From the NCBI RefSeq assembly GCF_001677475.2, contig NZ_CP015229.1: a DNA stretch of 64,000 nt, one strand, 5' to 3'. This DNA comes from Escherichia coli (GTDB lineage: Bacteria; Pseudomonadota; Gammaproteobacteria; Enterobacterales; Enterobacteriaceae). The notes beneath the pieces are model-generated. The model worked only from the letters and a program-made list of their open reading frames with translations, was not told the DNA's origin and made no database searches. Within the stretch, counting starts at the first letter, position 1. Each line of letters starts with the position of its first letter. Of the stretch, positions 7,601 to 52,168 are shown in pieces. The position numbers were made by a program, and so were the translations under genes.

Positions 7601-8848
<1,248 letters not shown>

Positions 8849-8851
8849 CTA

Positions 8852-8873
8852 AAACATAGCCTTTGCTATGTTT
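8852..8873. promoter_or_regulatory. MntR operator (palindrome) in the mntH leader
   Basis: AAACATAGC-CTTT-GCTATGTTT perfect inverted repeat immediately upstream of the mntH RBS; matches the MntR box as I recall it. Confidence 0.75.
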
Positions 8874-8890
8874 CATGCTATGCCAAACGA

Positions 8891-8910
8891 GAATGATTAT
8901 CAAATTCATT
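8891..8910. promoter_or_regulatory. Fur box candidate upstream of mntH
   Basis: GAATGATTATCAAATTCATT resembles the GATAATGATAATCATTATC Fur consensus; mntH is known to be Fur/MntR co-regulated. Confidence 0.5.
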
Positions 8911-9174
8911 TGAATGGATTGTGGTGATTTCTCTGATAGACCAGGATTATGACTACGAAAAGATTGATGACTTGAATGTTATGGTTATGTTTAATGTTAG
9001 CACATTTACATAACTTTCAGCTTCCATACACAACATAGCAGAAATGTATGACAGCTCACTATTTTTGAAGCTTGTCACAGGACGTCATTATAGTGTGTGT
9101 CAGATCTCGTTTTCCTTAACCATGTTACATAGAATGTGCACGGAAATTTAACCTGCCTCATATTTGGAGCAAAT

Positions 9175-10377
9175 ATGGACCGCGTCCTTCATTTTGTACT
9201 GGCACTTGCCGTTGTTGCGATTCTCGCACTGCTGGTAAGCAGCGACCGCAAAAAAATTCGTATCCGTTATGTTATTCAACTGCTTGTTATCGAAGTGTTA
9301 CTGGCGTGGTTCTTCCTGAACTCCGACGTTGGTTTGGGCTTCGTGAAAGGCTTCTCCGAAATGTTCGAAAAACTGCTCGGATTTGCCAACGAAGGGACTA
9401 ACTTCGTCTTTGGTAGCATGAATGATCAAGGCCTGGCATTCTTCTTCCTGAAAGTGCTGTGCCCAATCGTCTTTATCTCTGCACTGATCGGTATTCTCCA
9501 GCACATTCGCGTGTTGCCGGTGATTATCCGCGCAATTGGTTTCCTGCTCTCCAAAGTCAACGGTATGGGCAAACTGGAATCCTTTAACGCCGTCAGCTCC
9601 CTGATTCTGGGTCAGTCTGAAAACTTTATTGCCTATAAAGATATCCTTGGCAAAATCTCCCGTAACCGTATGTACACCATGGCAGCAACGGCGATGTCCA
9701 CCGTTTCTATGTCCATCGTTGGTGCATACATGACCATGCTGGAGCCGAAATATGTCGTTGCAGCGCTGGTACTGAATATGTTCAGCACATTTATCGTGCT
9801 GTCGCTGATCAACCCGTACCGTGTTGATGCCAGTGAAGAAAACATTCAGATGTCCAACCTGCACGAAGGTCAGAGCTTCTTCGAAATGCTGGGTGAATAC
9901 ATTCTGGCAGGTTTCAAAGTTGCCATTATCGTTGCCGCAATGCTGATCGGCTTTATCGCCCTGATCGCGGCGCTGAACGCACTGTTTGCCACCGTGACTG
10001 GCTGGTTTGGCTACAGCATCTCCTTCCAGGGCATCCTGGGCTACATCTTCTATCCGATTGCATGGGTGATGGGTGTTCCGTCCAGCGAAGCACTGCAGGT
10101 GGGCAGTATCATGGCGACCAAACTGGTTTCCAACGAGTTCGTTGCGATGATGGATCTGCAGAAAATTGCTTCCACGCTCTCTCCGCGTGCTGAAGGCATC
10201 ATCTCTGTGTTCCTGGTTTCCTTCGCTAACTTCTCTTCAATCGGGATTATCGCAGGTGCAGTTAAAGGCCTGAATGAAGAGCAAGGTAACGTGGTTTCTC
10301 GCTTCGGTCTGAAGCTGGTTTACGGCTCTACCCTGGTGAGTGTGCTGTCTGCGTCAATCGCAGCACTGGTGCTGTAA
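9175..10377 (+). CDS. nupC: Nucleoside:H+ symporter NupC
   Basis: ORF track starts at 9136; chosen start is the ATG giving [20 protein letters not shown] (400 aa), CNT-family transporter. Confidence 0.95.
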
Positions 10378-10388
10378 GCACCATACAT

Positions 10389-10420
10389 AAAAAAGCCGGG
10401 GATAATTCCCCGGCTTTTTT
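10389..10420. terminator. Bidirectional intrinsic terminator between nupC and pdeA
   Basis: AAAAAGCCGGGGATAATTCCCCGGCTTTTTT: GC-rich hairpin flanked by A-run and T-run. Confidence 0.8.
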
Positions 10421-10427
10421 ACGCCTG

Positions 10428-12617
10428 TTAATCAGCTAATGGCTGCGGGCGACCAATCAGATACCCTTGCAGATATTGCACCCCGAGCTTATGCAATAGC
10501 GCCTGTTGCTGTTGCGTCTCGACAAACTCCGCGACCACACTCAATGACTTCGCTTTCGCCAGATCGGTAATTGATCTCACAATCATCGCATCCAGCGTGT
10601 TCGTGACAATATCTTTCACAAAGACGCCATCAATTTTGATGATATCAGCCTGCAAACGCTTTAACCGTTCGTAGTTGGCATATCCGGTGCCAAAGTCATC
10701 AATCGCAATCCGGAAACCAAACTTATGCAGCTGCTCGATGTTGTACATGCTGCTTTCTGCGTTAGAAAACGCCTGCTCCTCGGTGATCTCAAGAATGACC
10801 GCCTGCGGGGAGATGTGATAACGCTTAAACAGACGAATAATCCGCCCGGCAATATTCTTTTGCAGCAGCGTGAGCGGCATTAAATTGACTGAAAAGCGCG
10901 GTCCTTTTTTGTCGCAAGGGTGTGTTGCCAGCCACTTCAACAAGGATTCCAGCACTTGCAAATCAAAACGCGCGCTAAGGTTAAACTGAGCAATAAGGGG
11001 CAGAAACTTATCCGGGGTCATAATGCCGCCGTCATACTTCAGTCGCGCGAGGATCTCATCATAACCTTCACCCTCTTTGTTGCGAATTGGCTGGGCGTAG
11101 AGCAGCAAATCACCCTGATCTAACGCCGTGCGAATGGTATTCAGCAATAGCACCTGTTTAGTGGTCTGCCCGGAAACCATCTCCTCTCTGCTATCCAGCG
11201 CCAGCACATGATGATGTGCACAGGATTGCTCCGCCAGCCAGCTTAACTGCCCCAACAAGGGTTGCAGGGTTTCCTGATTTCCATCAAAACGCCCCCAGGC
11301 AGCACCATAGCCCATATCCAGCCCGGTATTGTTCCAGTGAATTTGCCGACTATTCAGGATGTTAACCATATGCTGGAGTCGTCCTTCCGTTTCCGGTCCG
11401 CTCAGCACTAACAGCAGTTCACTACCCGGCAATTGATACAACTTTTCGTTTTCCTGCATCAACGGCAGCAGCGTACGGTAAATTGAGCGGATACAGTGAA
11501 CGCGCATCATTAACCCGTAATGACGACTCATAAACTCAAGATTATCAATGCGCAGGCAGCAAAAACTCTTGCCCGCCTCTTGCTCCGGCGCTTGTTCTAA
11601 CGCACGAAAGTTGGGTAGGAGCGTTAACGGATCGGTCAGCGCCTGCAAATGCCAGCGGCGATTAAGCCATTCACTGCGATGATAAATGCGCACCATATAG
11701 AGCAGGCAAACGCTAAAGGAAATCAGCACCGCAAGAATAAATGCCAGCGAATATTCGGTTTCCACCCCTTGCAAAAAGTTCTGGTTGTAATTCAGCAGGC
11801 AAAGCGTTGAAACAGCCCAGGTGAGATTTAAAAACGGATAGCGAAGCTTACCGACCCCGAGGGTAAAGATGATGAAGAAAACGGGTACCAGGTAACCGGC
11901 AATAAAGTCGTTTTCATAAGGTGTGCACAACAGAAGTAGCAGCACGCTTAACGCTGCCAGCCAGCTTAAGGTAAATGCGCGTTTCTCTTTGCCCAACGAC
12001 GGAGCGATATCCCTGCGCCACAATATCTGCGCAAAGTGGGGACTTACAATCATGCGAGTGAGATAGTAGAAAAGCATGTTGTAAATCAGCACAGCGGTGA
12101 AAAGGCTTAGCAAATCAACGACCGTGAAAATGGCATCCGCATCGCCGAAAAAGGTGGATATCTTTAGCGGGAAATCAAAGAAGCTCCCCACAAGATACAT
12201 GCTGCATTTGATGCCGATCGGCGTCACCAAACCAAGCCAGAACAGACGTTGCCAGACATATCGGCTGGTCAATCCATAACGCCAACGCGTCCCCAGCTGC
12301 CAGCGTAATATTGCGCAGGCACACAACACGACAAACGTCTGGCTGCCGAGCATGACCGCAGTCTGTAAAAAAGAGAGATGAAAGTTCCACAGATTGGTGC
12401 AAAACATCCCGCATAAAACGGGAACGACACCGCGCCAGCCAAAGATAAACAAGATTGATAGCATTACGCACAGTGGCATCCACGCCAGAAAGATATAACT
12501 GGAATGGATAATGGCAAGTGGCGAAATAAAACGGGATAGCTGAATAAGTACCACGGTGAGCGTAAACGCTAGTGTGAATATCTTGATATTTTTTATCAGG
12601 TTATGCTCCACAAACAT
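10428..12617 (-). CDS. pdeA: c-di-GMP phosphodiesterase PdeA (YfeA), MASE1-GGDEF-EAL
   Basis: ORF track 749 aa; start chosen at internal Met (MFVEHNLIKNIK) giving 729 aa; N-terminal polytopic domain, C-terminal EAL motifs (EITE...DDFGTGY). Confidence 0.85.
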   Translation of the reverse strand: MFVEHNLIKNIKIFTLAFTLTVVLIQLSRFISPLAIIHSSYIFLAWMPLCVMLSILFIFGWRGVVPVLCGMFCTNLWNFHLSFLQTAVMLGSQTFVVLCACAILRWQLGTRWRYGLTSRYVWQRLFWLGLVTPIGIKCSMYLVGSFFDFPLKISTFFGDADAIFTVVDLLSLFTAVLIYNMLFYYLTRMIVSPHFAQILWRRDIAPSLGKEKRAFTLSWLAALSVLLLLLCTPYENDFIAGYLVPVFFIIFTLGVGKLRYPFLNLTWAVSTLCLLNYNQNFLQGVETEYSLAFILAVLISFSVCLLYMVRIYHRSEWLNRRWHLQALTDPLTLLPNFRALEQAPEQEAGKSFCCLRIDNLEFMSRHYGLMMRVHCIRSIYRTLLPLMQENEKLYQLPGSELLLVLSGPETEGRLQHMVNILNSRQIHWNNTGLDMGYGAAWGRFDGNQETLQPLLGQLSWLAEQSCAHHHVLALDSREEMVSGQTTKQVLLLNTIRTALDQGDLLLYAQPIRNKEGEGYDEILARLKYDGGIMTPDKFLPLIAQFNLSARFDLQVLESLLKWLATHPCDKKGPRFSVNLMPLTLLQKNIAGRIIRLFKRYHISPQAVILEITEEQAFSNAESSMYNIEQLHKFGFRIAIDDFGTGYANYERLKRLQADIIKIDGVFVKDIVTNTLDAMIVRSITDLAKAKSLSVVAEFVETQQQQALLHKLGVQYLQGYLIGRPQPLAD

Positions 12618-12824
12618 GAGTACACTACTCTCACTGATCGGGGTTTTCAGGCACACAAATAATAAGTTTATTCGCATCGCGAAGCAAACAGGGGCCAGCC
12701 TGTTGCCTATTTTTCATCCAATGATGCTTTCACCAGGCGGCGCTAACCCGGACGTAGACTGTATTACAAAAGCGGCAAAAAGCAGAGACAAAAAACCCCC
12801 GCTTTGCAGCGAGGGTTGGAAATT

Positions 12825-12900
<76 letters not shown>

Positions 12901-12932
12901 GTCACGTAAAGCTTGTCGAGTTGACGGGCGGC

Positions 12933-12961
12933 ATCATATGAATTCCGCCCGAATGTGTCAA
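12933..12961 (-). promoter_or_regulatory. Sigma70 promoter for tRNA-Ala
   Basis: On minus strand TTGACA (12961-12956), 17-nt spacer, TATGAT (12938-12933), followed by GC-rich discriminator typical of stable-RNA promoters. Confidence 0.6.
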
Positions 12962-13134
12962 CGGCAAATTGCAACGTGTAGTTTCAATCGCTGAAAAATC
13001 AGGCAAATGAACAATTTTGGAAAACCGCTCGCATTCAGTAGTTATTCATGTCACGGTTTCCTGTAAAGTGGTGTTATAAAATGAACTACTAATAGACCCC
13101 ATACATTCAGGGAATTGTTATGTTCAAGGAGAGG

Positions 13135-13479
13135 ATGACGCCAGATGAACTTGCCAGACTGACTGGCTATAGCCGCCAGACCATTAATAAATGGGTACGC
13201 AAGGAAGGCTGGACAACGTCACCAAAACCTGGCGTCCAGGGTGGCAAAGCCCGACTGGTTCACGTCAATGAACAGGTTCGTGAATATATTCGCAATGCTG
13301 AACGTCCGGAAAGTCAGGGAGAAACGCCTGCCCTTTCTGGTGATGCGCCGCTTGAAGTATTGCTGGTGACACTGGCGAAAGAGATGACGCCAGTCGAACA
13401 AAAACAGTTTACATCCTTACTTCTGCGGGAAGGGATTATCGGATTGTTACAACGCTTAGGGATTCGCGATAGCAAATAA
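13135..13479 (+). CDS. yfeC: Putative HTH DNA-binding protein YfeC
   Basis: ORF track starts 13120; AGGAG RBS supports ATG at 13135 (MTPDELARLTGYSRQTINKWVRKEGW), 114 aa; paralogous to adjacent yfeD. Confidence 0.85.
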   Translation: MTPDELARLTGYSRQTINKWVRKEGWTTSPKPGVQGGKARLVHVNEQVREYIRNAERPESQGETPALSGDAPLEVLLVTLAKEMTPVEQKQFTSLLLREGIIGLLQRLGIRDSK

Positions 13480-15598: not shown

Positions 15599-15674
15599 GG
15601 GTGATTAGCTCAGCTGGGAGAGCACCTCCCTTACAAGGAGGGGGTCGGCGGTTCGATCCCGTCATCACCCACCA
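15599..15674 (+). tRNA. valU: tRNA-Val (UAC)
   Basis: GGGTGATTAGCTCAGCTGGGAGAGCACCTCCCTTACAAGGAGGGGGTCGGCGGTTCGATCCCGTCATCACCCACCA, 76 nt. Confidence 0.95.
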
Positions 15675-15718
15675 ACTACTTTATGTAGTCTCCGCCGTGT
15701 AGCAAGAAATTGAGAAGT

Positions 15719-15794
15719 GGGTGATTAGCTCAGCTGGGAGAGCACCTCCCTTACAAGGAGGGGGTCGGCGGTTCGATCCCGTCATCACCCACCA
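15719..15794 (+). tRNA. valX: tRNA-Val (UAC), second identical copy
   Basis: Identical 76-nt sequence to the first Val tRNA after a 44-nt spacer. Confidence 0.95.
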
Positions 15795-15798
15795 CTTC

Positions 15799-15874
15799 GG
15801 GTCGTTAGCTCAGTTGGTAGAGCAGTTGACTTTTAATCAATTGGTCGCAGGTTCGAATCCTGCACGACCCACCA
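15799..15874 (+). tRNA. lysV: tRNA-Lys (UUU)
   Basis: GGGTCGTTAGCTCAGTTGGTAGAGCAGTTGACTTTTAATCAATTGGTCGCAGGTTCGAATCCTGCACGACCCACCA, 4 nt after the second Val tRNA. Confidence 0.95.
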
Positions 15875-31652: not shown

Positions 31653-32112
<460 letters not shown>

Positions 32113-41545: not shown

Positions 41546-41635
41546 TGAAACGGACAATGCTCTATCTTTCTCTGCTGGCTGTTAGCTGCAGCGTCAGCGC
41601 CGCAAAATACCCTGTTCTGACAGAAGGTAGTTGAT
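41546..41635 (+). pseudogene. yfeW: 29-codon ORF encoding only a signal-peptide-like sequence; probable 5' remnant of yfeW (PBP4B)
   Basis: MKRTMLYLSLLAVSCSVSAAKYPVLTEGS then stop; in the reference gene order a ~430 aa penicillin-binding protein follows murP here, but only ~180 bp separate murP and yfeX in this window. Confidence 0.5.
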
Positions 41636-41663
41636 CAAGTATATGCGGCGTTAAAGCAGTAAT

Positions 41664-41700
41664 AAAAAGGCCAGTCAGTAATGTTACTGCCTGGCCTTTA
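41664..41700. terminator. Bidirectional terminator hairpin before the yfeX stop
   Basis: AAAGGCCAG-TCAGTAATGTTACTGC-CTGGCCTTT long inverted repeat. Confidence 0.7.
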
Positions 41701-49391: not shown

Positions 49392-50753
49392 TCAGAAGAA
49401 CAGTGACGGATCGCCCGCCCGTTTGGTCAGGCGACCGTTTGCCATAATGCCCATGCTTTCCAGCCAGCGCTCAAACTCCGGTGACGGGCGCAGGTTGAGT
49501 AACTGACGCACAGTGGCAGTGTCGTGGAAGGCCGTGGTCTGGTAGTTGAGCATGATGTCATCGCCTAACGGCATCCCCATGATGTAGTTGCAGCCTGCGG
49601 TGGCGAGCAGGATCATCAGGTTTTCGTTGAGGTTCTGGTCAGCGTCAGCGTGGTTGGTGTAACAGCAGTCACAGCCCATAGAGATGCCGCTCAGCTTGCC
49701 CATAAAGTGATCTTCTAAGCCCGCACGGATAATCTGACGGTCATTGTAGAGATACTCCGGCCCAATAAAGCCGACCACGGTGTTGACGATAAACGGATCG
49801 TAATGACGCGCCAGCCCATAGTTACGTGCTTCCATCGTCACCTGGTCTGCGCCGAAGTTAGCGCCAGCGGATAGCGCTGAACCTTGTCCGGTTTCGAAGT
49901 AGAGGCAGTTTTCCCCGGCGATACGGTTGAACTCTGCACCCACTGCGCGCGCTTCGTCGAGCATCGCCAGTTCCACACCAAACTCTTTCAGCCCTTTTTC
50001 ACTGCCACAGATACTCTGGAAAATCAGCCCGCCTGGTGCGCCACGACGAATCGCTTCGATCTGGGTGGTGACGTGCGCCAGTACGCAGCCCTGAGTTGGG
50101 ATGTTGAATTTGTCGATCACGCTATAGATGGTGTCCAGCACGCGGCTTAAGTTTTCCACGTCGTCAGTTACCGGGTTGACGCCGATCACCGCATCGCCCA
50201 CCCCGAAGGAAAGCCCTTCGTAGATTTGCGCGGCGATACTTTGCACGTCGTCACGGGTGTCATTTGGCTGCAAACGGGCGCTGAAGGTGCCCGGAATACC
50301 GATGGTGGTATTGGCCTTTTTGATTACCGGCATTTTCTTCGCGCCGTAGATCAGGTCCGCGTTGGAGCAAATCTTCGCTACCGCCGCGACCACTTCCGAG
50401 GTCAGCCCTTTGCGGGTAAAGGCAATGTCGTCCACGCTGGTTTCATCGCTCAGCACATACTCACGCAGTTCGCTGATGCTCCAGTTTTTAATCTGGTTGT
50501 AGGCCGTTTCGTTAACGTCGTCCTGAATCAGCCGCGTCACGCAGTCATCTTCATAGGCAATCACCGGATTATTGCGGATGTCCGCTACGGTCATTTCCGA
50601 CAACACCTGCTTTGCCGCCACGCGCTCCTGTGAGCTTGCCGCTGCAACGCCTGCCAGCACATCCCCCGAACGCAGTTCGTTGGCTTTAGCCAGCACCTCT
50701 TTTACATCCTTAAACTGATATACATTGCCGAACAATGTGGTCTTTAGTTTCAT
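49392..50753 (-). CDS. eutB: Ethanolamine ammonia-lyase large subunit
   Basis: 453 aa; MKLKTTLFGNVYQFKDVKEVLAKANELRSGDVLAG. Confidence 0.97.
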   Translation of the reverse strand: MKLKTTLFGNVYQFKDVKEVLAKANELRSGDVLAGVAAASSQERVAAKQVLSEMTVADIRNNPVIAYEDDCVTRLIQDDVNETAYNQIKNWSISELREYVLSDETSVDDIAFTRKGLTSEVVAAVAKICSNADLIYGAKKMPVIKKANTTIGIPGTFSARLQPNDTRDDVQSIAAQIYEGLSFGVGDAVIGVNPVTDDVENLSRVLDTIYSVIDKFNIPTQGCVLAHVTTQIEAIRRGAPGGLIFQSICGSEKGLKEFGVELAMLDEARAVGAEFNRIAGENCLYFETGQGSALSAGANFGADQVTMEARNYGLARHYDPFIVNTVVGFIGPEYLYNDRQIIRAGLEDHFMGKLSGISMGCDCCYTNHADADQNLNENLMILLATAGCNYIMGMPLGDDIMLNYQTTAFHDTATVRQLLNLRPSPEFERWLESMGIMANGRLTKRAGDPSLFF

Positions 50754-50764
50754 AAGTCGTTCCC

Positions 50765-52168
50765 TCAGGAAGGAAATGCGAGTGATTTCACCGTCACCGG
50801 CACAACCGATCCGCCAAAAAGAGGCGTACCAATGTCGATATAGTCCCCCGCGCGGACAATCACTTCGTCAATGACTGCCAACGGGAGTTGTTGTAGCTGT
50901 GGGCGCAATAACATGCCCAGAGCTTTACCAAAGTCCTGCCCGGCCACCACCAGCAGGGGATGCGGATTCGGAAAACGCGCGACGAAATCGACCAGCGCGT
51001 TGATGACCGTCAGTACCGCGGCGTAACGCACAGGCAGCGAGGCGGGAAGCGCCAGCACGTACGCGTCAGTTTTGGGATCAAGATCCAGCTGAATCAGCGC
51101 CTGTTGCCAGGCACTCACCAGATCCGTTTCATCAATCGGGATCGCCACCGGCAAATTGCGCAGCGGCAGTTGTACGCCCTCCAGCCAGATTGTGCTGCCA
51201 GAGAGCGAAAGGGTATGTGCACCCGCGCCAATCACCGTGGCGCGTACGGTTTGCGCCGGAAACTGCACATTCATCTCACGCAGGCGCGGATGGTCATGCA
51301 GCGCCGTTGCCAGAAGTGGGCCAATATCGGCAAAACAGAACGGGTCGGCGGGCTGGTGGCGATAACATTCGCCCACGCCGCCAGAAAGCGTAATGATTTC
51401 GGGCGTAACACCTGTGGGCAGCAAACCGGTTTGCATCAATGCCTGCGCGAGCGGCGAGAGCGTTCCGTCAATCACTTCGACAATCAGTTCTGCCATCCGC
51501 CGGGTAACCTGCACCAGCTGCGCGCCGGTCAGCGAACGGACGTCAGTGCCTGCACCGAAGCACTCATCCACAATCATCTGCCCCGGTTTATGAGCGTAAA
51601 CCACGCGCCCCTGGCTGTCGGTTTCCAGCAGGCGACCACCGACGTTGAGGCAGGCAGTGCCGCTGATTTTTCCGGCATCGAACAGGGCGTAGTTCGCGGT
51701 GCCACCGCCGATGTCGATATTCAGTACCCGACACAGCCGTTGTTCAGAAAGGGTTTGCGCCCCGGCACCGTGACCAGCGATTACGGATTCGAGGTGCGGC
51801 CCGGCGCTGGCGACGACAAAATCGCCCAGCGACTGAGAGAGCGCCATCACCGCCAGGCGAGCATTGCGGGTTTTCGCGCTTTCACCGGTGATGATGATGG
51901 CACCAGAATCAACGCTTTCCGGCGCAATTCCCGCTGCCTGATATTGCTCTAAAATCAGCGATTTCAGTTCCGCTTCTTTTAAACCACCCTGTTTATCGAC
52001 AGGGGTAAAGAACACCGGGCTTTGCCAGCTAATTTCGCGTTTGATGAATTCGTAGCGCGGCACCTGCGACACCGCCGCACGGTTAACCAGCTCCAGGTGG
52101 GAGAAAATCACCTGGGTGGTGGTGGTGCCGATATCGATACCGACGCTCAGTAGCTGGCGAGTGTTCAC
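50765..52168 (-). CDS. eutA: Ethanolamine ammonia-lyase reactivase EutA
   Basis: 467 aa; MNTRQLLSVGIDIGTTTTQVIFS (ASKHA-like ATPase); 11 bp downstream of eutB with no insertion. Confidence 0.96.
   Translation of the reverse strand: MNTRQLLSVGIDIGTTTTQVIFSHLELVNRAAVSQVPRYEFIKREISWQSPVFFTPVDKQGGLKEAELKSLILEQYQAAGIAPESVDSGAIIITGESAKTRNARLAVMALSQSLGDFVVASAGPHLESVIAGHGAGAQTLSEQRLCRVLNIDIGGGTANYALFDAGKISGTACLNVGGRLLETDSQGRVVYAHKPGQMIVDECFGAGTDVRSLTGAQLVQVTRRMAELIVEVIDGTLSPLAQALMQTGLLPTGVTPEIITLSGGVGECYRHQPADPFCFADIGPLLATALHDHPRLREMNVQFPAQTVRATVIGAGAHTLSLSGSTIWLEGVQLPLRNLPVAIPIDETDLVSAWQQALIQLDLDPKTDAYVLALPASLPVRYAAVLTVINALVDFVARFPNPHPLLVVAGQDFGKALGMLLRPQLQQLPLAVIDEVIVRAGDYIDIGTPLFGGSVVPVTVKSLAFPS

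Follow-up and report, generated by a model that had tools for sequence, protein, structure and literature searches.

The predicted shared terminator of nupC and pdeA in Escherichia coli as an unoccupied IS186 hot spot

What does the absence of an insertion sequence tell about the strain that lacks it? This question is raised by the short interval between the convergent genes nupC and pdeA in a 64-kb stretch of Escherichia coli DNA (“the window”, meaning the whole stretch that was analysed). A preliminary description of the window depicted this interval as a single terminator common to both genes and free of any insertion sequence, pointed to a copy of IS186 at the same place in strain MG1655, and took the lack of this copy, together with a missing prophage at the eut locus, as a hint at a strain or derivative devoid of these mobile elements. 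As detailed below, the interval is a hot spot for IS186 that is vacant in the window. The observation is correct, yet of a kind known before, considering that the terminator is an ordinary one, that the insertion (IS186C) is annotated in the K-12 reference, and that the target preference of IS186 has been published.

The two genes that flank the interval are readily recognized. The upstream one, nupC (9175–10377, plus strand), encodes a nucleoside:H+ symporter of 400 amino acids and ends with a TAA codon at 10375–10377; its product matches the NupC/NupG family model TIGR00804 with 486.7 bits (cut-off 442), and a 400-amino-acid gene call on an identical public contig maps to precisely these window positions. 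The opposing gene, pdeA (yfeA; 10428–12617, minus strand), encodes a putative c-di-GMP phosphodiesterase of 729 amino acids with MASE1 and EAL domains, both of which are matched by the respective Pfam models. Its open reading frame extends over 10428–12677, while the 729-amino-acid gene call on the identical public contig corresponds to 10428–12617; the stop codon is TAA at 10430–10428 (TTA at 10428–10430 on the plus strand). No equivalog-level match for PdeA was returned by NCBIfam, and the identity assigned here is based on the RefSeq annotation of matching DNA, in which the homologous region is designated nupC and pdeA in thousands of E. coli genomes, and on an exact-sequence protein look-up, which yielded an E. 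coli phosphodiesterase. With nupC ending at 10377 and the minus-strand stop codon of pdeA occupying plus-strand positions from 10428 onwards, the distance of 50 bp between the two stop codons given in the preliminary description is exact.

The convergent spacer (10378–10427) is arranged in the order GCACCATACAT-AAAAAA-GCCGGGGA-TAAT-TCCCCGGC-TTTTTT-ACGCCTG. Its centre is occupied by a hairpin, GCCGGGGA-TAAT-TCCCCGGC (10395–10414), composed of an 8-bp stem and a 4-nt loop and usable on both strands. In the reading direction of nupC, the hairpin is followed by the T6 tract (10415–10420), corresponding to U6 in the nupC transcript, and the A6 tract (10389–10394) corresponds, on the minus strand, to the U6 of the pdeA-side terminator. 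The stem begins 17 nt past the nupC stop codon and 13 nt past that of pdeA. The core hairpin has a folding energy of −17.0 kcal/mol on the plus strand and −16.1 kcal/mol on the minus strand, with U6 immediately adjacent in both cases; the whole 50-nt gap folds at −25.0 kcal/mol (plus) and −30.8 kcal/mol (minus), with z-scores of −7.7 and −7.9, respectively, and none of 200 shuffled sequences folded equally well. A scan with a consensus terminator model reported the plus-strand site only, although the minus strand possesses an equal stem and U6. An Rfam search of positions 8800–13200 with a permissive E-value revealed no RNA family in the gap; the output consisted of sub-threshold matches driven by the hairpin and one tRNA.

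Thus, a stable, GC-rich stem-loop with a U-tract at its 3' side on both strands lies close to both stop codons, and the gap is, as far as can be predicted from its sequence, a canonical bidirectional intrinsic (Rho-independent) terminator common to nupC and pdeA. Since the GC-rich hairpin is placed between an A-tract and a T-tract, either transcript would end in the hairpin followed by U6, and termination at this element would be expected to occur in vivo. The hairpin is identical in the uropathogenic strain UPEC 536 and in O157:H7 EC4115, which carry other flank haplotypes. Two small differences set alleles of the spacer apart. First, the K-12-type allele has G-T as the outermost pair of the stem, in place of the G-C of the window, UPEC 536 and O157:H7. 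Second, an extra C is present at 10379, directly after the nupC stop codon (TAAGCACC versus TAAGACC in six other strains); hence, the spacer measures 50 bp in the lineage of the window as opposed to 49 bp in the other E. coli strains, six of which were compared.

In the MG1655 reference, this element is no longer intact. The annotation of NC_000913.3 lists “insertion sequence:IS186C” with the gene insL3 (b2394) between nupC and pdeA (2514273–2515617), in agreement with the preliminary description. As judged by its 23-bp inverted repeats, IS186C is 1339 bp long, and it is bordered on either side by the 10-bp direct repeat GGATAATTCC. In the window, GGATAATTCC is present as a single copy (10400–10409) that makes up the loop and the inner stem of the hairpin. 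When IS186C and one copy of the repeat are removed from the MG1655 sequence, the hairpin is restored, with two differences from the window: C/T in the outer pair of the stem, and the absence of the extra C that the window has after the nupC stop codon. In its interrupted state, MG1655 leaves each of the two genes with a 4-bp remnant hairpin lacking a U-tract. A duplication of GGATAATTCC also flanks IS186 in E. coli C, TUM1857 and CM2. The inverted repeat of IS186 (CATAAGCGCTAACTTAAGGGTTG) has no match in the 64-kb window with up to three mismatches allowed, so that the impression of an IS-free interval, initially gained by eye, is borne out.

IS186 preferentially inserts into 5'-GGGG(N6/N7)CCCC, as stated in PMC6925257. 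The terminator stem contains such a sequence, GGGGATAATTCCCC (10398–10411), which was located by pattern search with that consensus and which reads GGGG-ATAATT-CCCC. It is unoccupied and constitutes the sole GGGG-N6-CCCC match in the 64 kb, where 1.2 would be expected by chance. Because the stem conforms to GGGG-N6-CCCC, the terminator doubles as an IS186 landing site.

How frequently this site is used becomes evident from the complete RefSeq genomes of E. coli. The nupC–pdeA junction is uninterrupted in 4460 of 5425 genomes (82%), and IS186 in one or the other orientation accounts for 929 of the 965 split junctions, corresponding to approximately 17% of the complete genomes. The orientation found in K-12 is present in 472 genomes, mainly laboratory K-12 strains, while 457 genomes, including E. 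coli C, ATCC 8739 and ML35, carry IS186 inverted at the identical position with matching flanks. An exception among the former is TUM1857, in which the K-12 orientation is combined with flanks of the haplotype seen in strain 2/0, whose site is empty (over 470 nt of flanking sequence, one mismatch to 2/0 versus nine to K-12). In CM2, an inverted IS186 resides between flanks that are only about 97% identical to those of K-12. IS186 with the GGATAATTCC duplication thus spans at least three flank haplotypes, and its presence on different haplotypes indicates that the 10-bp target was entered independently several times. Among the papers searched, none mentions both IS186 and nupC.

The interval also accommodates other elements. 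In ETEC4077, the sequence shows IS200C within the A-tract, immediately to the left of the hairpin; in ETEC1701, IS200C is annotated in the nupC–pdeA interval; and E686 contains an IS4 copy between the two genes. A search for this exact hairpin among the species representatives of GTDB gave a sole match, namely a 289-bp contig (NZ_VLXZ01000152.1, 1.4× coverage) in the assembly of Alkalicoccobacillus porphyridii. On this contig, the E. coli nupC–pdeA spacer is free of an IS and shows the T allele of the K-12 type; the contig is probably E. coli contamination.

To which lineage does the window belong? Alignment over the full 64 kb revealed that the window is collinear with MG1655, at an overall identity of about 97.3% (96.0–99.3% per segment), and confirmed that the reference has IS186 at nupC–pdeA where the window has none. 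In this alignment, no DNA longer than about 60 bp is present in the window and absent from MG1655; hence, there is no mobile element within the window, a statement which applies to these 64 kb and not to the rest of the genome. For positions 1–25000 and 39001–64000, the best identity to any complete RefSeq E. coli genome is at most 97.7% (5,425 genomes with matches), and all complete genomes matching these two 25-kb stretches fall in the 95–99% band. Two draft assemblies are much closer. GCA_033692955.1 is 100% identical to the window over 13.2 kb and shows the same empty nupC–pdeA junction, and GCA_016118665.1 is 99.99% identical over 13.2 kb, with the junction likewise empty; in these assemblies, the junction lies inside contigs of 369 kb and 596 kb. 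To judge from these sequence comparisons, the window appears to derive from a deep-branching lineage of E. coli that is represented by drafts and has no complete genome in the collection; as a guess, it may be cryptic clade I.

Apart from the two mobile elements, the window and MG1655 differ in a few further places. About 960 bp of MG1655 holding yfeS are missing at window positions 32106–32110, and about 1.4 kb comprising yfeW (PBP4B) except for its first 80 nt are missing at 41625–41668, where about 42 bp are found instead. In the region of 12825–12900 and 15599–15874, the window has one tRNA-Ala(GGC) versus two in MG1655 (alaX, alaW) and two tRNA-Val(UAC) versus three (valU, valX, valY), while tRNA-Lys is present in both.

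Taken together, the window very probably represents an intact bidirectional terminator of the ancestral type, i.e., the commoner, unoccupied form of an IS186 site, in a natural E. coli lineage about 2.7% removed from K-12. Insertion of IS186, as it occurred in K-12 and in about 17% of the complete genomes, splits this terminator, and the lineage of the window has presumably never carried IS186 at the site.

An earlier occupancy followed by loss would lead to the same sequence. The lineage may have had IS186 at this position and lost it by precise excision, restoring the hairpin, an event that has been reported for the IS186 hot spot at the lon promoter (PMC3861542) and that, if precise, would leave no scar; the fact that the nupC–pdeA site is a repeatedly used hot spot also speaks in favour of such a history. 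However, the empty state occurs in 82% of the genomes and on each of the divergent flank haplotypes sampled, the two near-identical assemblies of the window lineage are both empty, and the sequence bears no trace of former occupancy. Parsimony therefore favours primary absence, and we consider a past excision improbable.

Far less can be said for an engineered or cured derivative of K-12, such as a strain with a reduced genome and no IS elements, in which IS186C and the prophage of the eut locus would have been deleted. This idea derives its appeal from the fact that both mobile elements known from this region of K-12 are gone while collinearity with MG1655 is otherwise preserved. The second of these elements is CPZ-55, a cryptic prophage of 6.8 kb situated between eutB and eutA in MG1655. 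In the window, eutB (49392–50753) and eutA (50765–52168) are separated by a junction of 11 bp (50754–50764), as is evident from the open reading frames, the sequence, the MG1655 annotation and the break in the alignment, and the junction constitutes an empty CPZ-55 site; the prophage was hence correctly described as missing. A K-12 derivative would, however, be expected to be about 100% identical to MG1655, and the identity actually found, in every segment as well as overall, implies that the window does not originate from such a strain. Furthermore, a 1-bp insertion and a C/T change distinguish the spacer itself from its K-12 counterpart, further differences concern yfeS, the greater part of yfeW and two tRNA gene copies, and draft assemblies of natural isolates match the window at 100%. 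The divergence of 2.7% refutes this explanation, and its probability is negligible. As for the suggested lack of mobile elements, the absence of both elements stands for the region under study, but the notion of a special strain or derivative is not supported, given the 97.3% identity and the fact that the empty sites are the majority states: of 5423 complete E. coli genomes, 4964 have no interruption between eutB and eutA.

An equally negligible chance is left to the idea that the IS was dropped upon collapse of repeats during assembly and that the empty junction is an artefact: IS copies are a classic source of trouble in short-read drafts, and those of IS186 break contigs in the K-12 strain NCM3722 (PMC3045373), but repeats yield contig breaks rather than a seamless junction with a single 10-bp target in a perfect hairpin, and this idea was rejected because the seamless junction is shared by two independent assemblies, well inside their large contigs, with thousands of complete genomes showing the identical empty junction.

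With the window assigned to the unoccupied, ancestral-type state, the occupied state in the laboratory strains deserves a closer look. When MG1655 and E. coli C are compared, the 6 kb on each side of the site are identical (0 mismatches in 12 kb) and one and the same 10-bp target is used, yet the orientations of IS186 are opposite. In PI6, which is the most similar empty-site strain examined, 61 mismatches are found on one side and 21 on the other. The opposite orientations could mean that IS186 entered twice, independently and very recently, or that it was flipped, or excised and re-inserted, at the hot spot. We tentatively propose, as a possibility we would hesitate to rely on, that few natural IS186 hot spots of E. 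coli are used as heavily as the nupC–pdeA terminator and that IS186 was flipped in place or excised and re-inserted in the very recent ancestry of K-12 or C. If this were true, the orientation in the K-12 reference would be nearly private to laboratory K-12, and the contribution of the window would be confined to supplying the unoccupied allele.

For the interpretation of other genomes, it follows that the K-12 reference is the exception at nupC–pdeA, and an empty site at nupC–pdeA or at eutB–eutA should not suggest an unusual or engineered strain. A terminator stem of the type GGGG-N6-CCCC may serve as a landing pad for IS186, and a single insertion then deprives two genes of their terminator simultaneously; this risk concerns constructs that use such hairpins and are propagated in IS186-bearing hosts. 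The hot-spot statistics compiled here are a modest by-product of the analysis.

Finally, the locus can be placed beside systems that are already known. As predicted from sequence, the nupC–pdeA hairpin resembles the bidirectional intrinsic terminators found between other convergent bacterial genes, with nothing unusual about it. With regard to MG1655, IS186C sits at exactly the site of the hairpin, whereas the window is without IS186. A further counterpart is the IS186 hot spot at the lon promoter, where insertion in either orientation as well as precise excision has been described (PMC3045373, PMC3861542). At both loci, a target of the GGGG(N6/N7)CCCC type is used repeatedly, at one position and in both orientations; in contrast to the lon promoter, the target at nupC–pdeA is a terminator hairpin between convergent genes, so that what is lost upon insertion is a terminator, not expression.
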